NCBI RefSeq assembly: GCF_000010625.1 | Contig: NC_010296.1 | Span: forward strand, 5,550,001-5,582,000 | DNA: 32,000 nt | Direction of reading: 5' to 3' | From: Microcystis aeruginosa NIES-843 | Lineage (GTDB): Bacteria > Cyanobacteriota > Cyanobacteriia > Cyanobacteriales > Microcystaceae | Position numbers and translations under genes: made by a program | Part shown: positions 2,811-31,405 of the stretch, piece by piece | Numbering within the stretch: the stretch's first letter is position 1 | Layout of the letters: each line of letters opens with the position of its first letter | The notes under the pieces: model-generated | Told to the model about the DNA's origin: nothing | What the model saw: the letters and a program-made list of their open reading frames with translations, nothing else | Database searches by the model: none

Positions 2811-3998
2811 ATGGAAAAAGCCTATTCGTTTCGATTTTACCCCACACCAACACAAGAGTCGCTATTGCGGCGCACATTGGGCTGTGTAAGATTAGTTTAC
2901 AACAAAGCTCTCCACGAACGAACACAAGCTTGGTACGAAAGACAAGAAAGAGTAGGATATACTGAAACTTCTTCAATGCTAACCGATTGGAAAAAACAAG
3001 AAGAATTAGAGTTTTTAAACGAAGTTAGCTGTGTACCTTTACAACAAGGGTTAAGACATTTACAAACAGCTTTTACTAACTTCTTTGCTGGTCGTACTAA
3101 GTATCCTAACTTTAAGAAAAAACATCAGGGAGGAAGTGCCGAATTTACCAAATCTGCTTTTAAGTTCAAAGACAAACAAATCTATTTAGCCAAATGCACA
3201 AAACCTTTACCTATTCGGTGGTCAAGACAAATACCAGAAGCTTGTGACCCAAGTACAGTAACAGTCAGATTACATCCTTCAGGACGTTGGCATATCTCAA
3301 TAAGATTTGATGACCCAACAATTAAGCCATTACCAGTAACAGATAAAGCCATCGGAATTGACTTAGGAATTAGTAGCCTCGTGATTACCAGCGATGGAGA
3401 CAAGGTATCTAATCCTAAGCATTTTAAGAAACATTATCGGAGACTGCGAAAGGCCCAAAAAAGCCTTTCTAGAAAACAGAAAGGCTCAAAAAATCGGGAA
3501 AAAGCAAGAATCAAAGTAGCAAGGATTCACGCTCGAATCACCGATAACAGAAAAGACCATTTACACAAGCTAACCACTCAATTAGTTCGTGAAAACCAAA
3601 CGATTGTGGTTGAGAATTTAGCCGTCAAGAATATGGTCAAAAACCCGAAATTATCTCAGGCAATATCTGACGTTAGCTGGGGAGAAATCACCCGACAATT
3701 AGCCTATAAATGCCGTTGGTACGGCAGAAATTACATCGAAATAGATAGATGGTTTCCTAGCTCTAAAAGGTGTAGTAATTGCGGGTATATTGCTGAGAAA
3801 ATGCCGTTAAATATTCGAGAATGGGACTGTCCAGACTGTGGGACACACCATGACCGAGATATTAACGCCAGTAAAAATATTTTGGCCGCAGGGCTTGCGG
3901 TGTCAGTCTGTAGAGCGACCATAAGACCAGAACAGAGTAAATCTGTTAAGGCAGGTGCGGAACCCCGCAAGGGAAAGAAGCAGAAACCTAAATCGTGA
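2811..3998 (+). CDS. tnpB: TnpB (IS605 OrfB family RNA-guided RuvC nuclease / transposon-associated protein)
   Basis: 395-aa ORF. RuvC-like motifs are IGIDLGI, VVENL and HDRDINAS. The zinc-finger motif is CSNCGY...CPDCG. The N-terminus MEKAYSFRFYPT is typical of OrfB/TnpB. Confidence 0.95.
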   Translation: MEKAYSFRFYPTPTQESLLRRTLGCVRLVYNKALHERTQAWYERQERVGYTETSSMLTDWKKQEELEFLNEVSCVPLQQGLRHLQTAFTNFFAGRTKYPNFKKKHQGGSAEFTKSAFKFKDKQIYLAKCTKPLPIRWSRQIPEACDPSTVTVRLHPSGRWHISIRFDDPTIKPLPVTDKAIGIDLGISSLVITSDGDKVSNPKHFKKHYRRLRKAQKSLSRKQKGSKNREKARIKVARIHARITDNRKDHLHKLTTQLVRENQTIVVENLAVKNMVKNPKLSQAISDVSWGEITRQLAYKCRWYGRNYIEIDRWFPSSKRCSNCGYIAEKMPLNIREWDCPDCGTHHDRDINASKNILAAGLAVSVCRATIRPEQSKSVKAGAEPRKGKKQKPKS

Positions 3999-4056
3999 GG
4001 TTTGGGAATCACCGTCCGTTTACGGCGGTGAGGATGTCAATCCAGCAAAATGTCCA
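3890..4056 (+). ncRNA. Predicted omega RNA (reRNA) of tnpB copy 1: scaffold overlapping the tnpB 3' end and right end, plus about 16 nt of flank-derived guide
   Basis: Placement follows the known TnpB architecture. Support from the sequence: a right-end hairpin with a compensatory base-pair change between copies, and a small hairpin CCC-GCAA-GGG (3964-3973) that is replaced by a UUCG-loop hairpin in copy 2. The 5' boundary is a guess. Confidence 0.4.
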
Positions 4057-9817: not shown

Positions 9818-9868
9818 CCTTGCTTTAGAATTAAACTAATCCTTCGCTAGAAATTTGAGGTGATTTTT

Positions 9869-10354
9869 ATGGAACTCGATAACATTATCAAAAAAGTGGC
9901 AGGTACTTATTTAGCTTCGGCTATTATTGCTGTCATCGTGCTAATTCTGACCCTCGGACAACCCTTTGTAGTTTTTCTGGGTATTGGAGCGATGGGGTTG
10001 GTTACTGTGCTAGGAGATGCGATTGCTCAGTACGGAATTGAAGCGGTTCTGAATGCTTTTTACACTGAGCGAAGTAAAAAAGAATCCCTGGAAACACTTT
10101 TGGCTGAAATTGATGCTTTACCTCTGACTGATGACCTGAAATTAAAAACCAAAAAACACTTGACTGACCATCAAGAACAGACAGTAAAGCAGCAAGAAAC
10201 GGTAACTGAGCCAACTCCTGAAAGTCCTCAAACAGTTGTTATTGAAAATGAACCAGTTATTGAAAATGAACCAGTTATTGAAAATGAACCAGTTATTGAA
10301 AATGAACCAGTTATTGAAAATGAACCGGTTGTTGTTGAAGTTGAAAATGTTTAA
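9869..10354 (+). CDS. Small membrane protein (two predicted TM helices) with a charged tail ending in an (IENEPV)5 repeat
   Basis: The ATG at 9869 is preceded by GAGG at 9857-9860; the track start at 9860 is a GTG. The hydrophobic stretches are YLASAIIAVIVLILTL and FVVFLGIGAMGLVTVLG. It starts 51 bp after the DUF2235 gene. Confidence 0.7.
   Translation: MELDNIIKKVAGTYLASAIIAVIVLILTLGQPFVVFLGIGAMGLVTVLGDAIAQYGIEAVLNAFYTERSKKESLETLLAEIDALPLTDDLKLKTKKHLTDHQEQTVKQQETVTEPTPESPQTVVIENEPVIENEPVIENEPVIENEPVIENEPVVVEVENV
10241..10330 (+). repeat. Tandem repeat, 18 bp x 5 (ATTGAAAATGAACCAGTT), in frame
   Basis: Four identical units plus one unit with a single A>G change. They encode IENEPV x5. Confidence 0.95.
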
Positions 10355-12133: not shown

Positions 12134-12272
12134 TATAGCGTTTCCCAATCTCATGAGGTACATCAAAATCTTAACTCCCGAATCCTGAATCCTGAATCCT
12201 GAATCCTGAATCCTGAATCCTGAATCATCAAAACCTAAGACTCTGTACCTCACAACTATGGGAATTGCTATA
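12134..12272. repeat. MITE-like element: conserved arms flanking a (GAATCCT)6 heptamer tract (12180-12227)
   Basis: The arms TATAGCGTTTCCCAATCTCATGAGGTACA... and ...TGTACCTCACAACTATGGGAATTGCTATA recur inverted at 31302-31405, where the core heptamer differs. Confidence 0.8.
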
Positions 12273-13231: not shown

Positions 13232-13415
13232 CAAACGGTAAGTCTGCCAAAGGAAGCGTCAAAAGCGCAAAATCTGCGAGATTAGTTTTGGAAACGCTAA
13301 TCTCAGCGAAGCGGATTAGCTTAGTTCATATCGATCTCATCGAAAATTTTGGGTCTGAAACCCCGCCGTTTTACGGCGGCTTTGCTGTTAAATCTTAGCA
13401 CATTTACACGATATA

Positions 13416-13424
13416 TGCTAGAAT
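13416..13424 (+). promoter_or_regulatory. Candidate extended -10 promoter (TGcTAGAAT) for tnpB copy 2
   Basis: Same motif and same 7-nt spacing to the ATG (13432) as in copy 1. Confidence 0.35.
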
Positions 13425-13431
13425 GCGGGAT

Positions 13432-14613
13432 ATGGAAAAAGCCTATTCGTTTCGATTTTACCCCACACCAACACAAGAGTCGCTATTGCGGCGCACTTTG
13501 GGCTGTGTAAGATTAGTTTACAACAAAGCTCTCCACGAACGAACACAAGCTTGGTACGAAAAGCAAGAAAGAGTAGGCTACGCTCAAACTTCTTCAATGT
13601 TGACTGAGTGGAAAAAACAAGAAGAATTAGACTTTTTAAACGAAGTAAGCTGTGTACCTTTACAACAAGGGTTAAGACACCTACAAACAGCTTTTACTAA
13701 TTTCTTTGCTGGTCGTACTAAGTATCCTAACTTTAAGAAAAAACATCAAGGAGGAAGTGCCGAATTTACCAAATCTGCTTTTAAATTCAAAGACAAACAA
13801 ATCTATTTAGCTAAATGCACAGAACCCTTACCTATTCGATGGTCAAGACAAATACCAGAAAGCTGTGAACCAAGCACAGTAACAGTCAGATTACATCCTT
13901 CTGGACGTTGGCATATTTCAATAAGATTTGATGACCCAACAATCCAGCCATTACCCCCAACCGATAAAGCCATCGGAATTGACTTAGGAATTAGTAGCCT
14001 CGTGATTACCAGCGATGGAGACAAGGTATCTAATCCTAAGCATTTTAAGAAACATTATCGGAGACTGCGAAAGGCCCAAAAAAGTCTTTCTCGAAAACAG
14101 AAAGGCTCAAAAAATCGGGAAAAAGCGAGAATCAAAGTAGCAAGGATTCACGCTCAAATTACTGATAGTAGAAAAGACCATTTACATAAGCTAACCACTC
14201 AATTAGTTCGTGAAAACCAAACGATTGTGGTTGAGAATTTAGCCGTCAAGAATATGGTCAAAAACCCGAAATTATCTCAGGCAATATCTGATGTAAGCTG
14301 GGGAGAAATCACTCGACAATTAGCCTATAAATGCCGTTGGTATGGGAGAAACTACATCGAAATAGATAGATGGTTTCCTAGCTCTAAAAGGTGTAGTAAT
14401 TGCGGGTATATTGCTGAGAAAATGCCGTTAAATGTTCGAGAATGGGACTGTCCAGACTGTGGGACACACCATGACCGAGATATTAACGCGAGTAAAAATA
14501 TTTTGGCCGCAGGGCTTGCGGTGTCAGTCTGTAGAGCGACCATAAGACCAGAACAGAGTAAATCTGTTAAGGCAGGTGCGAAAAATCCTTCGGGACCCCA
14601 AGCAGAAACCTAA
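13432..14613 (+). CDS. tnpB: TnpB (IS605 OrfB family RNA-guided nuclease), copy 2
   Basis: Start chosen at the MEKAYSF ATG that is homologous to copy 1; the track ORF starts 3 codons earlier at 13423. RuvC and Zn-finger motifs are intact. By hand I count 13 substitutions versus copy 1 over the shared 383 residues, followed by a different C-terminal tail. Confidence 0.93.
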   Translation: MEKAYSFRFYPTPTQESLLRRTLGCVRLVYNKALHERTQAWYEKQERVGYAQTSSMLTEWKKQEELDFLNEVSCVPLQQGLRHLQTAFTNFFAGRTKYPNFKKKHQGGSAEFTKSAFKFKDKQIYLAKCTEPLPIRWSRQIPESCEPSTVTVRLHPSGRWHISIRFDDPTIQPLPPTDKAIGIDLGISSLVITSDGDKVSNPKHFKKHYRRLRKAQKSLSRKQKGSKNREKARIKVARIHAQITDSRKDHLHKLTTQLVRENQTIVVENLAVKNMVKNPKLSQAISDVSWGEITRQLAYKCRWYGRNYIEIDRWFPSSKRCSNCGYIAEKMPLNVREWDCPDCGTHHDRDINASKNILAAGLAVSVCRATIRPEQSKSVKAGAKNPSGPQAET

Positions 14614-14679
14614 ATCGTGAGGTTTGGGAATCGCCGTCCGTTTTACGGCGGCGAGGATGTCAACGTCAAGTCTAGCTCT
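14513..14679 (+). ncRNA. Predicted omega RNA of tnpB copy 2 (scaffold plus flank-derived guide)
   Basis: Same logic as copy 1. It has the hairpin TCC-TTCG-GGA at 14586-14595. The guide would start at 14664 (CGTCAAGTCTAGCTCT). The 5' boundary is a guess. Confidence 0.4.
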
Positions 14680-15595: not shown

Positions 15596-16298
15596 TTATT
15601 CAGCCCTTCCCGACGTCGGGGGGCAAGAGGGGGTCAAACGGTTTAATCTTTTTTCTGCCTGGCGATAGTATTGCGGTATCTCTACCGTTTCCCCATCACT
15701 GTTAGCGTAGAAAACTTTTAAACCTACATCCAATCCCACACATCTTTTAGTCGGCTCTAACGGTTTCGCATATTCCCGAATATCAACGCTAAGACAGAAT
15801 TGGACATAGTAACCGTCTGCTCGTTTAACAATCCTAACTCGTTTAATTTGGTCTATAGGGTAAAAGTTTAGGTCTCTGGTTCCTTTCAGTTTAACCGTGC
15901 CAATATTTTTCTTATCTGTGAAAGTTATTTTCTTTCTATCCTCCGATAGTTGACCTCCACAGTTTTTATATTCCACAGAACGATTATTCTTTTGGAATTT
16001 AGGATAACCTTTTTTACCTTTAACCTTTTTCTTACAATTGTCATAGAAACGAGGAATAGCCGACCATGCTCGTTCAGCAGATGCTTGTCTAGCAGTAGAA
16101 TTTACAGTATCGACAAACTTGAACTGTTTGGCGAGAACAATATTTATTGAGAGAATATTTATCTACTTTATCCTCTTGTTTGGCATCCATCCAAAGCCTT
16201 AAAGCCTTATTTCTGATGAATTGTACTGTACGAATAGCTTCATCTATGGCAGAACACTGACTTGGTTTGACCACGGCTTTCATTTCTAAGACAATCAT
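15596..16298 (-). pseudogene. Truncated, frameshifted TnpB (IS605 OrfB family, a different lineage from the two intact copies); left-end remnant extends to about 16465
   Basis: The N-terminal piece is MIVLEMKAVVKPSQCSAIDEAIRTVQFIRNKALRLW. After a frameshift it continues ...GYPKFQKNNRSVEYKNCGG...CVGLDVGLKVFYANSDGE...RQAEKRLNRL and then ends. RuvC-II/III and the Zn finger are missing. A hairpin GTCGGGGT...ACCCCGAC at about 16413-16459 looks like a left-end structure. Confidence 0.8.
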
Positions 16299-17209: not shown

Positions 17210-19579
17210 ATGTCCCAAGATAAGCCGATTCAACGCCAAATTCTACCGATTCCCGACTTAACCCCCTTCGGTCTAACCACCTACGACGCGAAGAATCCGG
17301 ACACTGACTATCCCCCGATTCGAGATATCCGACCGCCGGCCGGCGCGCCCAACGTGCTGATCGTGCTGCTCGATGACGTGGGCTTCGGAGCCTCCAGTGC
17401 CTTCGGTGGCCCGTGCAATACCCCCACTTTCGAGCGATTAGCGGCACAGGGGCTAAAATATACCCGTTTTCATACCACTGCCCTCTGCTCTCCCAGCCGC
17501 GCGGCTTTGCTCTCTGGAAGGAATCATCACTCGGTCGGCATGGGCAACATCACCGAAACCGCCACCTCCGCCCCCGGGCAGAGTTCCGTTCGTCCCAACA
17601 CCAAAGCACCCCTCGCCTTGACCCTGAAGCTGAACGGCTATTCCACGGCGCAGTTCGGTAAGTGCCACGAGGTACCGGTTTGGCAAACCAGCCCGATCGG
17701 CCCGTTTGACGCTTGGCCCTCTGGCGGGGGTGGATTCGAGTATTTCTACGGCTTTATCGGTGGCGAGAATAACCAGTGGGAGCCGGCACTGTACGAGGGA
17801 ACAACCCCGATCGAACCGCCGAAAACCCCGGAGGAAGGGTATCACCTGACCGAAGATCTGGCTGATCGAGCGATCGCTTGGGTCAGTCAACAAAAAGCCC
17901 TCGCCCCCGATAAGCCTTTCTTTATGTACTTCGCCCCCGGCGCGACCCATGCCCCCCACCACGTCCCCAAGGAATGGATCGACAAGTATCGGGGCCAATT
18001 CGCTCACGGTTGGGATCACCAGAGGGAGATTACCTTTGCCCGACAGAAAGAACTGGACGTAATTCCCCAAAATGCCGAACTCACCCCCCGTCACGCCGAA
18101 ATTCCCGCCTGGGATGACATGGATGATCGCCTGAAGCCGGTATTAGAGCGCCAGATGGAGGTGTACGCCGCCTTTCTGGAACATACCGATGAGCAGGTGG
18201 GACGGGTGATTCAAGCCTTAGAAAATCTAGAAATCCTCGACGATACGCTCGTTTACGTCATCATCGGCGATAACGGCGCATCCGCCGAGGGAACGCTTCA
18301 GGGCGCGTTTAACGAGATGGCCAACTTTAACGGGTTAGCGGGTCTAGAAACCCCGGAATTTCTCCTCTCGAAACTGGATGACTTCGGCGCGCCCGATTCC
18401 TATAATCACTACGCGGTCGGTTGGGCTTGGGCGATGAGTAGCCCCTACAAATGGACGAAGCAGGTCGCTTCTCACTGGGGCGGGACCCGCAACGGTACGA
18501 TTGTTCGTTATCCCAAAATCATCACGGAAAAAGGTGGGATTCGCCATCAGTTCTGTCATCTGATCGATGTGGCCCCGACGGTGTTGGCAGTAGCGGGAAT
18601 TCCCGAACCGACTATGGTTAACGGTGTCCTACAAAGTCCCTACGAGGGTACGAATATGGTTTATACCTTTAACGACGCGGCCGCCCCCGAACGTCACGAT
18701 GTGCAGTATTTCGAGATGTTTGGCAATCGGGGCATCTATTACAAGGGTTGGAGTGCGATTACCAAGCACCGCACCCCGTGGATTATGACTGGACAGACGA
18801 TGGTTCCTTTCGACGATGATATCTGGGAACTATACGACGGCAGTACGGATGGGACGCAAGCTCGGGATCTCTCCCGGGAAATGCCAGAGAAACTGCACGA
18901 ACTACAGCGACAATTTCTGATCGAGGCGGTTAAGTATAATGTACTGCCCCTAGACGATCGCCAAGTGGAACGGGTCGATCCCGCCACCGCTGGCCGGCCT
19001 ACCCTCGTGCGGGGAAACTCGCAATTATTCTTTGCCGGGATGGGGCGTTTGTCTGAAAATAGCGTCATCAACATCAAAAATAAATCCTTCTCGGTGACGG
19101 CGGAACTGAACATTCCCCCGGAAGGCGCGGACGGGGTGATTATCGCCCAAGGCGGCCGCTTCGGTGGTTGGAGTGTCTATACCCACGACGGAAAAGCCAA
19201 GTTCGTCTATAACGTGCTGGGGATTCAAAGTTTTGTCACCGAGGCGACGGAGACGATCCCGGCCGGTAAGCATCAGGTACGGATGGAGTTTGCCTACGAT
19301 GGCGGTGGTTTAGGACGGGGGGGAAATGTCACCCTCTACTACGACGGTCAACTGGTGGGTACGGGTCGGGTAGAACGAACTCAGGCTTTTATTTTCTCTG
19401 CGGACGAGACCACGGATATCGGCTACGAATCCGGTACCCCCGTAGCGGCGGAATATACCTCGAAAACCAGTCGTTTCACCGGCAAGATCGGTTGGGTTCA
19501 ACTGGATGTGGGTACGGACGCTCATGACCACCTGATCGACCAGGAGGAACGTCTGAAAATTATCATGGCCCGGCAGTAG
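17210..19579 (+). CDS. Arylsulfatase (type I, formylglycine-dependent sulfatase family, large AtsA-like form)
   Basis: 789-aa ORF. Motifs are LIVLLDDVGFG and the CxPxR formylglycine motif LCSPSRAALLSGRNHH (Cys codon at 17486-17488). The gene is GC-rich. Confidence 0.93.
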   Translation: MSQDKPIQRQILPIPDLTPFGLTTYDAKNPDTDYPPIRDIRPPAGAPNVLIVLLDDVGFGASSAFGGPCNTPTFERLAAQGLKYTRFHTTALCSPSRAALLSGRNHHSVGMGNITETATSAPGQSSVRPNTKAPLALTLKLNGYSTAQFGKCHEVPVWQTSPIGPFDAWPSGGGGFEYFYGFIGGENNQWEPALYEGTTPIEPPKTPEEGYHLTEDLADRAIAWVSQQKALAPDKPFFMYFAPGATHAPHHVPKEWIDKYRGQFAHGWDHQREITFARQKELDVIPQNAELTPRHAEIPAWDDMDDRLKPVLERQMEVYAAFLEHTDEQVGRVIQALENLEILDDTLVYVIIGDNGASAEGTLQGAFNEMANFNGLAGLETPEFLLSKLDDFGAPDSYNHYAVGWAWAMSSPYKWTKQVASHWGGTRNGTIVRYPKIITEKGGIRHQFCHLIDVAPTVLAVAGIPEPTMVNGVLQSPYEGTNMVYTFNDAAAPERHDVQYFEMFGNRGIYYKGWSAITKHRTPWIMTGQTMVPFDDDIWELYDGSTDGTQARDLSREMPEKLHELQRQFLIEAVKYNVLPLDDRQVERVDPATAGRPTLVRGNSQLFFAGMGRLSENSVINIKNKSFSVTAELNIPPEGADGVIIAQGGRFGGWSVYTHDGKAKFVYNVLGIQSFVTEATETIPAGKHQVRMEFAYDGGGLGRGGNVTLYYDGQLVGTGRVERTQAFIFSADETTDIGYESGTPVAAEYTSKTSRFTGKIGWVQLDVGTDAHDHLIDQEERLKIIMARQ

Positions 19580-19696: not shown

Positions 19697-19738
19697 GAGG
19701 AGTCAGGAGACAGGAGATAGGAGACAGGAGACAGGAGG
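19697..19738. repeat. Heptamer tandem repeat, (CAGGAGA)-like x6
   Basis: GAGGAGT CAGGAGA CAGGAGA TAGGAGA CAGGAGA CAGGAGG read directly. Confidence 0.9.
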
Positions 19739-19932
19739 ATAAAAAAGACAAGAGACAACTATCCTACCGATAAAATCTAAGATTATGTCAAATTTATCGG
19801 AATTTTTAGATATTTTGACCAGATAGTGCCTCGATAACTTACTTTTCCAGGAGGTTTGATTTTCTATAGCAAAAACTAACCGCAATGATAGTTTTATCTA
19901 GGGTTTGCGGCAAAAAGTTTTTCGTGGGGACA

Positions 19933-19953
19933 GGGTGTAGGGTGTGGGGTGTG
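19933..19953. repeat. Heptamer tandem repeat, (GGGTGTG)-like x3
   Basis: GGGTGTA GGGTGTG GGGTGTG read directly. Confidence 0.85.
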
Positions 19954-20046
19954 GTGCGATTCGTTGGCTAGAAACTAGACAGTAAGACGTTTAGAGGATT
20001 AGCCGCTTGGTAAATGTAGTACCTTGATAACTTTATAACCCTACAG

Positions 20047-20738
20047 GTGCGGGTTAGTAATAACCTTAGTCCTGTCCTCTAGATGCCTAGAGTGACGGCA
20101 TTTCCTGCTGCTTTAGACTTGGTACATCTGAGGTAGTGAGCGAGGAAAAAAAAGCGGTATCTGATAGCCTAAATCAGAAACCCGTTGAGCCAGAACCTAT
20201 GGATAGCCCTGGGGCGAAGATACGAATTAACCATCGTCAACACCCACGAGCCAAAAGGCTGACAGGCTCGAAACAAAAGTTAACAGAGTTGGGGCTGATA
20301 GCTCATACCACTATCAGTAAGGCATTCCCGTTACTCTGTTGTGGACAGTATCATCCTAAGGGTTCAACCAATGGTTATAGGGAACGAAGTAACCCTGATT
20401 GACTCTGCCCGTTCGGGGCAGTAGGAAACCATCCGCAAGTCAATAGAGGGAGAGGATGTCCTTAAAAGCCAAGGCTTTGAGTAATATCAAAGATATGCTG
20501 ACAAAGGACGGGTAACTAGGAAGTCTAAGCAACAATCAACGGTCATATACGCCCTAAAACCAACAATCTTGTCTGGTGGGGATACAGCCAAGAGGGTTGA
20601 ATAGACAAGGAAATAATAATTCCCATTATTATTCTACTAATGACAGTAGCCTAGTTACTCAGGAGCCGGATACGGCGAAAGTCGTAAGTCCGGTTTTGAA
20701 GCAGGGGGTGGGAAGGCGACTTCCTGCTCTACTGTAAC
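20047..20738 (+). mobile_element. ORF-less group II intron (ribozyme only, no reverse-transcriptase/maturase ORF)
   Basis: The 5' end GTGCG at 20047 fits the GUGYG consensus. A canonical 34-nt domain V lies at 20663-20696, GAGCCGGAUACGGCGAAAGUCGUAAGUCCGGUUU, with the AGC triad, a GAAA tetraloop and a 2-nt bulge. It aligns position for position with the ai5gamma and Ll.LtrB domain V. A short domain-VI-like hairpin follows. The 3' end is uncertain, at 20732 (..CTAC) or 20738 (..TAAC). The domain IV region is too short for an IEP. Confidence 0.75.
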
Positions 20739-21115
20739 GGGTTTTACCGATTTTCAGGTGGTCAATTACCTAATTTTCAGAGAAAAAGTACCTGAATTTT
20801 CCCCCCGATCACTCCCATGCCCGGAACTTTTTGAGGGCAAAAAAGTCTAAAAGTCTTATCCAACAAGGTTTTTAGATTTATTCAGCCAGCCCTAATTAGT
20901 CTAAATATTGGCTAAGAAAATTACTGGAAATATCAAATATAGCGTTATCTTAATGGTGAGGTAGGAAGTCTCTGGTTTTAGGAAAGGACGGAACTGCGGA
21001 ACGCCGGAACAGTAGCTGGTCGTCCGGAGATGACGCCAAATCCCGTCATACTTCATCTTGATGAGAAACGCTATCAGCTGTTGTCTATTTAAACTGGGTA
21101 TTAAGGAGAGCAATC

Positions 21116-21721
21116 ATGAAAAATTCTCATCAATTGACCAAATCCCTGAAGCGTTTTCGTTATACACTTTTTCTGGGAGTAGCGGCCATGGCAATCACTA
21201 GCTGGGGGATGCCCAATATTTCTGTAGCCCAGACTACTCCTGCTCAAGAAAAAGTGCAGTTAATGTTCGTGCAAACGGCAGAAGATATTCAGGTAGATCC
21301 CGTCACAAAAACAATTCGCTTGGTGAACGTCAACAAACAGACATTATACTTTTCCGATCGCCCGAACCGGATTGCTGGTAATCTGACCATGGCCGCCTAT
21401 ATGGATGAGTGGACAGCCAGGGCAGGAAAAGATAATTTTGCTAACGATCCCCCCAATGCGACCCTCTCAGTCTACGAACCTGGTCGTCAAGACAATACTA
21501 TAGTTGTCGTCGAGATTAGCAATCCCGTCATCGATGGCAAGGACTTGATTTATAGCTACAAGCTAATCGAAGGGACTCTACCCAAGGCCGGCGGGGCAAC
21601 TTCCCTATTTATCGATTGGATTGGTGTTGGTGGTGGTGTCGGTCCTGGCTTTTACGGGGTGGGGGCCGGTACCCGCGGAGTCGGTTTATACGGTGGTTAC
21701 GGTGGATCCCTACGTTATTAA
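21116..21721 (+). CDS. Secreted hypothetical protein with Gly-rich C-terminal tail
   Basis: AAGGAG lies 8 nt upstream of the ATG. The signal-peptide-like N-terminus is FLGVAAMAITSWGMPNISVAQT. The C-terminus is GVGGGVGPGFYGVGAGTRGVGLYGGYGG. Confidence 0.75.
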   Translation: MKNSHQLTKSLKRFRYTLFLGVAAMAITSWGMPNISVAQTTPAQEKVQLMFVQTAEDIQVDPVTKTIRLVNVNKQTLYFSDRPNRIAGNLTMAAYMDEWTARAGKDNFANDPPNATLSVYEPGRQDNTIVVVEISNPVIDGKDLIYSYKLIEGTLPKAGGATSLFIDWIGVGGGVGPGFYGVGAGTRGVGLYGGYGGSLRY

Positions 21722-29676: not shown

Positions 29677-29735
29677 GGGAAGTGGGGAAGTGGGGAAATT
29701 GAACTAAAACCCCAAAACCCCAAAACCTAAAACCT
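29677..29735. repeat. Short tandem repeats (GGGAAGTG x2-3, then AAAACCCC x2 and AAAACCT x2)
   Basis: Read directly from the sequence. They lie in the intergenic region between convergent genes. Confidence 0.85.
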
Positions 29736-31301: not shown

Positions 31302-31405
31302 TATAGCAATTCCCATAGTTGTGAGGTACAGAGTCTTAGGTTTTGAGGAGTCAGGAGTCAGGAGTTAAGATTTTGGTGTACCTCATGAGATTGGGAAACG
31401 CTATA
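31302..31405. repeat. MITE-like element, same family as 12134-12272 in inverted orientation, with a (GGAGTCA) heptamer core
   Basis: Its reverse complement reads TATAGCGTTTCCCAATCTCATGAGGTACACCAAAATCTTAACTCCTGACTCCTGACTCCTCAAAACCTAAGACTCTGTACCTCACAACTATGGGAATTGCTATA. The arms are nearly identical to those of the first copy. Confidence 0.85.

Follow-up and report, generated by a model that had tools for sequence, protein, structure and literature searches.

Group II introns without an ORF are a type already known in bacteria, and trans-mobilisation is regarded as the rule for them (PMC4424553). The TeI3 ORF-less introns of Thermosynechococcus elongatus are spliced and mobilised by the 'driver' IEP of a related intron (PMC2882425), and in Arthrospira platensis NIES-39, 79 of about 150 group II introns are ORF-less (PMC2853384). 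The element described here adds one more intron to this type. It was found in a 32,000-nt stretch of Microcystis aeruginosa NIES-843 (contig NC_010296.1, positions 5,550,001 to 5,582,000), referred to below as the window; coordinates are those of the window unless a locus is named.

Like TeI3 (PMC2882425), the Microcystis intron is cyanobacterial, apparently of the IIB type and devoid of a domain IV ORF. The genome of T. elongatus, however, includes parent introns that encode an IEP, and remnants of the ORF border the deletion; neither parent nor remnant was found for Microcystis in the sequences searched. The TeI3 families have also diverged to different targets, whereas the Microcystis family uses a single one, a heptamer tandem repeat. 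Arthrospira resembles Microcystis in the large-scale proliferation of IEP-less introns in a cyanobacterial genome amid other repeats, but it also holds 71 IEP-encoding copies, and targeting of heptamer arrays is unreported in the description of that genome (PMC2853384).

The strategy of using a repeated intergenic target is not confined to the Microcystis intron. Class C and attC-associated introns home into abundant, harmless and repeated intergenic features; the class C introns are IIC RNAs, which read a DNA stem-loop together with a short IBS1/IBS3 and have no EBS2. The Microcystis intron instead pairs both EBS1 and EBS2 with a linear repeat. Heptamer targeting is a noteworthy detail and not a new principle, because repeated intergenic sites are preferred by class C introns too. 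Targeting of heptanucleotide (STRR) repeats by group II introns was not reported in the literature searched, and a consistent heptanucleotide tandem-repeat homing site of a group II intron appears to be undescribed.

Extent and genomic setting of the intron

Comparison of copies, empty sites and relatives defined a repeated unit of 785 nt (19954-20738, forward strand), running from GTGCGATTCG to CTACTGTAAC. The original prediction had started the element at 20047, giving a length of 692 nt. That start is wrong: the true one lies 93 nt upstream at 19954, which also begins with GTGCG, because the ends of about 20 copies, position 1 of the relatives and the intron-free form of the locus agree on it. 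Identity among copies begins at this base and ends with CTGTAAC at 20738, and the flanks of the copies diverge exactly at 19954. A GUGYG-type 5' end is therefore present at a boundary set by the empty sites and the copies. The GTGCG at 20047-20051 is present in the letters as described, but is internal. A twintron, considered as a candidate from the two GUGCG motifs, was rejected; domains V and VI occur only once, and the motif at 20047 belongs to domain I, where it is conserved. The features of the locus are as follows.

19933-19953, + strand: three GGGTGTR heptamers that form the 5' exon and the target (TRF; pattern search, two matches against 0.03 expected)
19940-19945, + strand: IBS2, GGGTGT, exon positions -14 to -9
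19948-19953, + strand: IBS1, GGTGTG, exon positions -6 to -1
19954-19958, + strand: 5' splice-site consensus GUGCG, starting at the first base of the repeated and inserted unit
19965-20005 and 20006-20026, + strand: two 5' hairpins of domain I, placed in the exon by the original prediction
20047-20051, + strand: internal GUGCG, aligning with the conserved internal GGUGAG/GGUGUG of full-length relatives
20052-20065, + strand: hairpin GGUUA-GUAA-UAACC with a GNRA tetraloop (MFE and centroid folds)
20136-20402, + strand: spurious 88-aa ORF inside domain I, no Pfam match
20240-20245, + strand: EBS2, ACACCC, perfect 6-bp complement of IBS2 GGGUGU
20295-20317, + strand: EBS1 hairpin, 7-bp stem CUGAUAG/CUAUCAG, 9-nt loop CUCAUACCA
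20304-20309, + strand: EBS1, CAUACC, pairing with IBS1 GGUGUG over 6 bp including one G.U
20595-20660 (approximate limits), + strand: domain IV, reduced to about 65 nt that fold into two small hairpins; no ORF
20663-20696, + strand: domain V, 34 nt, with AGC triad, 2-nt AA bulge, 5-bp upper stem and GAAA loop
20701-20735, + strand: domain VI, 15-bp helix with GCGA loop (RF00029 alignment and MFE fold)
20739, + strand: putative IBS3, the G with which the 3' exon begins, as it does at all insertion sites

Upstream of the intron is an arylsulfatase gene (17210-19579) and downstream of it a 201-aa ORF (21116-21721); neither is interrupted, in agreement with the intergenic position and lack of a host ORF first described for the intron. 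The surroundings had also been called repeat-rich, and TRF detected an AGGAGAC array (5.7 units, 19698-19737) besides the three GGGTGTR units at the insertion site. Other intergenic arrays in the window comprise TCCTGAA (seven units, 12176-12226), GGGAAGTG/AAAACCCC octamers (29677-29734) and AGGAGTC (three units, 31346-31365). At 10238-10334, inside a 164-aa ORF (9860-10354), the array consists of 5.4 units of 18 nt, GTTATTGAAAATGAACCA, with 97 % identity, and encodes a perfect hexapeptide repeat. A scan of the region for promoters and terminators gave nothing above shuffled expectation.

Domain structure and classification

The Rfam model Intron_gpII (RF00029) matched 20661-20738 over its full length with 55 bits (E = 2e-8; gathering cut-off, 40 bits), far beyond chance, and was the sole Rfam family above threshold in the window. 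The original prediction had made its case depend on a covariance-model match of this kind, and both the domain V architecture and the domain VI hairpin that it had read from the letters were upheld. Domain V reads GAGCCGGAU-ACGGC-GAAA-GUCGU-AA-GUCCGGUUU. Domain VI contains a branch-point-type bulged A at 20731, 8 nt from the 3' end, and the intron ends in AAC at 20738, which fits the AY rule. The plastid ndhA/ndhB domain V model also matched domain V, below its threshold (41.7 bits, cut-off 61).

For domains I to IV, the best score among the Rfam D1D4 models in a permissive scan was 26.7 bits against a cut-off of 36 (group-II-D1D4-2, 20100-20167). Bona fide full-length relatives likewise fell below the cut-off in every D1D4 model; these models thus do not cover the present intron lineage, and homology to the full-length relatives stands in for them. 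The two 5' hairpins of domain I are conserved, with RNAalifold predicting 20 pairs in the first 75 nt of 16 relatives, six of them with compensatory changes (columns 23/47, for example, are CG in eight and UA in six). The Microcystis copies are too alike to show covariation among themselves. The hairpin at 20052-20065 may, from its predicted fold, be the IC1/theta loop.

Domain IV had been expected to measure only tens of nucleotides, and the stub of about 65 nt bears this out: it encodes no reverse transcriptase and shows no trace of a former IEP ORF. RT ORFs are absent from the intron as a whole, from the window and from all Microcystis loci collected. It follows, as already argued in the original prediction, that splicing or mobility, if protein-assisted, would need a trans-acting IEP. 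The 88-aa ORF, which had been suspected to be spurious, has no family match, and homologous sequences are confined to its counterparts in other intron copies. The frame is not kept in sister copies, where one nucleotide is deleted at 20146 and an indel lies at 20338-40; this accounts for the variants of 60-95 aa produced by gene callers.

The segment 19954-20738 is a genuine group II intron, identified as such by the covariance match of domains V and VI and by the homology of domain I to IEP-encoding introns, and its boundaries and ORF-less state are established here. It probably belongs to the IIB, or chloroplast-like (CL), class; the presence of an EBS2, the sub-threshold ndhA/ndhB match and the RVT_N, GIIM and HNH domains of the relatives' IEPs are indirect hints of this.

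Full-length relatives encoding an IEP

The 22-nt 5' end was found without mismatch in 54 metagenome loci, mostly full-length introns of other cyanobacteria. In the full-length relatives, domain V lies about 2340-2650 nt downstream and an IEP ORF of 580-630 aa begins at intron position 550-650; their positions 1-92 align with 1-96 of the Microcystis intron, and their block 392-448 aligns with 388-443. The cyanobacterial relatives (L150-L200, L212) share with it the 5' end GUGCGAUUCGUUGGCUAGAAAC, a domain III block and domains V and VI, and have the EBS1 hairpin and the EBS2 stretch at equivalent positions. They differ in carrying the IEP ORF of about 1.8 kb (RVT_N, RVT_1, GIIM and HNH) and in their targets, which are protein genes, other introns and a 20-nt repeat, in contrast to the heptamer arrays of Microcystis. 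Similarity amounts to 70-85 % within the conserved blocks, which indicates that none of these relatives is the parent.

The insertion sites of several relatives were recorded. The relatives at L154 and L167 make a twintron, each having entered a different group II intron at its domain V (...GAGCCGUAUGAUGGGAAACU/); that at L156 lies directly downstream of, or within, the IEP ORF of another intron, and that at L160 lies inside a 20-nt tandem repeat. At L158, L170, L172, L180 and L195 the insertion site recurs, with 5' flanks that are nearly identical (...GATGATGGATYTGGCRATGATGGGYTGY/), and several organisms thus appear to share this homing site.

Wider searches extended to other collections. A degenerate domain V pattern retrieved at least 120 loci from many phyla in the genome collection, with no close relative among the matches listed; one Nostoc locus from the domain V scan (L064, 3836-4849) contains six tandem NsiR1 sRNA genes (RF02399), unrelated to the intron. 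In the plasmid collection, blastn gave matches limited to 50-nt fragments, and viral contigs scanned with domain V and the 5' 22-mer gave none.

Copies of the intron in Microcystis

Related copies, which the original prediction had proposed to look for, were collected by an exact look-up of the 88-aa ORF product, by searching for variants of this ORF and by the metagenome scan. About 20 were obtained, all with the same two ends and with identities of 98.6-100 %; the number of separate loci is roughly a dozen or more. The exact ORF product occurs on seven further contigs with unrelated neighbouring genes, and at six loci the copy is identical to that of the window over 785 of 785 positions. All named hosts are Microcystis (M. 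viridis NIES-102 and a M. aeruginosa MAG).

Copies also occur close together. Pairs separated by 21 nt are present in one array at L140 and at L145. At L142 (106-1673) two copies are arranged head to tail without a spacer (...CTGTAAC/GTGCGATTCG...), and L144, the same locus in another sample, has a single copy. The head-to-tail pair may be an artefact of assembly or may have arisen when a resident copy was invaded again at its 5' junction; a second insertion there would give just this arrangement, since it meets an unaltered 5' exon and once more a G at +1.

Several copies have been damaged. In M. viridis NIES-102 (L140, 5730-8032), a DDE_Tnp_1 IS lies inside an intron copy at about intron position 171-262. 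The copy at L148 has an ISL3-like transposase ORF of 400 aa after position 140, that at L157 has an insertion of about 1.15 kb with a DDE-like ORF at position 115, and that at L139 is decayed and has lost domain V.

Filled and empty alleles at the window locus

The arylsulfatase protein of the window is present in many assemblies and was used to locate the same locus elsewhere, and seven assemblies were found without the intron (L202, from M. viridis NIES-102, and L203-L208). In four of these (L202, L204, L205 and L208), the gap from the arylsulfatase gene to the 201-aa ORF measures 751 nt compared with 1536 nt in the window, a difference of exactly 785 nt. The empty junction reads ...CAGGGTGTAGGGTGTGGGGTGTG^GGGTTTTACCG (...GGGTGTG^GGGTTTTACCG), with the heptamer array unbroken and flanks that are 99.5-100 % identical. 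Insertion at this locus would thus be very recent, as it is polymorphic among near-identical strains.

The other three assemblies (L203, 6680-7030; L206; L207) carry an insertion of about 350 nt just upstream of the array, corresponding to window position 19885-19888 or thereabouts. Its ends match the flanks of the IS605-family TnpB gene of the window (14600-14659 and 13341-13383; also 3977-4036 and 2720-2762), and from these ends it looks like a small non-autonomous element of the IS200/IS605 type (MITE/PATE). With the intron, this makes two mobile elements that are polymorphic at the locus. In the window itself the TnpB/OrfB_IS605 gene (13423-14613, + strand) is full-length and includes a Cas12f-like TNB domain; a truncated OrfB fragment lies nearby (15596-15976, - strand). 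At the orthologous position a full TnpB copy is present in L202, L203, L206 and L209, and an HTH gene is found instead in L204, L205, L208 and L210.

Heptamer target and exon pairing

Every copy of the intron lies inside a (GGGTGTR)n array, with GGGTGT(G/A) directly 5' and usually more heptamers 3'. The insertion is always on one strand relative to the array, at a site matching EBS1 and EBS2, and the number of heptamers on either side varies freely. In the window, a check of EBS/IBS pairing suggested in the original prediction identified both EBS1 and EBS2, which can pair with the two heptamers immediately upstream of the intron. EBS2 sits in a variable stretch that follows a conserved CAUCGU and changes with the exon in relatives, for example by a compensatory difference between AACCU/AGGUU in L150 and AGCC/GGCU in L163. 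Two copies (L128 and L129) have A at exon position -1, resulting in a C.A mismatch with EBS1. The 3' exons begin with GGG (GGGTGT, GGGAGA or GGGTTT), the exception being GTGCGA at the head-to-tail junction of L142; by analogy with IIB introns, the G at 20739 is the putative IBS3.

Across the intron family, EBS1 co-varies with the 5' exon. Pairing of EBS1 with the intron's own exon reached at least 6 anchored bp in 18 of 29 introns, compared with 19.6 % of 808 mismatched intron-exon pairs. At the EBS1 position, the loop of L171 reads UUGUCCC against the exon GGGACAA, and that of L163 reads UUUACC against GGUAAA.

Unoccupied arrays were also observed beside occupied ones, one in a duplicated unit in L140 and others within a larger dispersed repeat in L147, L148 and L179. 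This larger repeat surrounds the array in the window (19860-19932 and 20739-20880) and recurs at L147 (3146-3350), L148 (4744-4947) and L179 (7395-7616). It consists of a left arm (TAGGGTTTGCGGCAAAAAGTTTTTCGTGGGG.CA) and a right arm of about 140 nt (GGGTTTTACCGATTTTGAGG...CAGGGAAAAAGTACCTGAATTT), and elsewhere in Microcystis it contains uninterrupted arrays. At other loci, short arrays of different units (CTGATAA, CTCCTGT and TGATCAC, downstream of intron copies) often adjoin the GGGTGTR arrays.

Search for a helper protein

The IEPs of L171 and L160 were used as queries for a helper; the best 120 matches came from Nostoc, Microcoleus, Lyngbya and similar genera, with no Microcystis among them. 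From Microcystis, the metagenome scan with the 5' 22-mer yielded ORF-less copies only and no IEP-encoding parent, and tblastn of an IEP against all Microcystis DNA collected, which comprises individual loci, gave no RT. Loci of the L160-like subfamily (L211-L218) were no closer to the Microcystis intron than the other relatives. M. aeruginosa NIES-843 has been reported to have seven group II RTs (PMC8934634), and a helper IEP may be encoded in the genome of this strain.

Proposed mechanism of spread

The Microcystis element is probably a young ORF-less IIB-type intron for which (GGGTGTR)n arrays serve as retrohoming sites, a helper protein being supplied in trans. It belongs to a lineage of cyanobacterial introns in which the full-length members code for a protein of the RVT_N/RT/maturase/HNH type. 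The excised intron RNA, in an RNP with the reverse transcriptase/maturase supplied in trans, would use EBS1 (CAUACC) and EBS2 (ACACCC) to pair with the two final heptamers on the target strand. It would then reverse-splice exactly between two heptamers, before a G, and the inserted RNA would finally be copied to DNA. The near-identical copies, the intact catalytic motifs, the exact filled and empty alleles and the agreement of the sites with EBS1 and EBS2 argue for recent RNA-guided mobility, in which splicing of the intron is presumed and retrohoming is the likely route in preference to others. Signs of TeI3-like mobilisation were found here: several sites are occupied by near-identical copies, EBS and IBS pair well, and the insertion is polymorphic for presence and absence. 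The hallmark of a standard mobile intron, an RT/maturase ORF in domain IV, is lacking, and the element is therefore a non-autonomous derivative.

The failure of the IEP, metagenome and Microcystis-locus searches to identify a helper would also suit an inert relic, in which the window copy belongs to a family that no longer splices or moves, for instance through loss of the helper IEP. The decaying copies (L139 without domain V; L140a, L148 and L157 broken by IS) fit such a history, as does the statement in a review that mobility has usually been lost in IEP-less introns (PMC4424553). A relic is nevertheless unlikely: the identity over 785 of 785 nt extends to six loci, the window copy retains all catalytic motifs, and an insertion that is polymorphic between near-identical strains, and hence very recent, is hard to reconcile with it. 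Several group II RTs are, moreover, reported in Microcystis genomes (PMC8934634).

Spread at the DNA level, through recombination or gene conversion between arrays or through hitch-hiking in the larger repeat, is very improbable. It would account for the many arrays that lie within a repeated element (TAGGGTTTGC..-(GGGTGTR)n-GGGTTTTACCGATTTTGAGG..), and the homologous heptamers on either side of the intron would permit recombination, but the unit that has moved corresponds to the intron termini to the base, and the flanking repeat also occurs intron-free. Copies are found in arrays outside the larger repeat (L128, L130, L132 and L140), always at a site fitting EBS1 and EBS2 and on one strand only. 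The free variation in flanking heptamer number is that expected for insertion in any register.

Practically no weight remains for an intron confined to 20047-20738 (692 nt) with the upstream 93 nt as a conserved part of the 5' exon or target: despite the GTGCG at 20047, a sub-threshold D1D4-2 match that would put position 1 near 20050 (model position 47 at 20100) and a 7-nt complement at 20373 to UAUAACC (exon positions -12 to -6), it is refuted by empty sites that are shorter by 785 and not 692 nt, by the occurrence of the extra 93 nt in all copies up to the point where flanks diverge, by the homology of positions 1-96 to positions 1-92 of full-length introns, in which the internal GUGCG aligns with GGUGAG, and by a search of the intron that found no EBS1 for CUACAG, the 6 nt before 20047.

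Retrohoming into heptamer arrays with help in trans thus being the preferred explanation, the intron may even be spreading in Microcystis populations today, with (GGGTGTR)n as a safe haven and an IEP that is not that of its parent, either a diverged resident or one delivered horizontally or by phage. This extension is put forward tentatively and is somewhat less probable than its opposite. If it is correct, EBS1 and EBS2 would read one and the same repeat unit, making any register of an array a site, and re-invasion at the 5' junction would give rise to the spaced tandems of L140 and L145 and the head-to-tail pair of L142.

Implications

The locus illustrates two risks for annotation. The first GUGCG upstream of a domain V need not be the splice site, and gene callers place a spurious ORF in every copy of the intron. 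For Microcystis, a 7-nt repeat read by both EBS1 and EBS2 would provide a retroelement with the means to multiply without hitting genes. The exact filled and empty alleles in near-identical bloom-forming strains offer a strain marker and a natural system in which trans-mobilisation can be studied.
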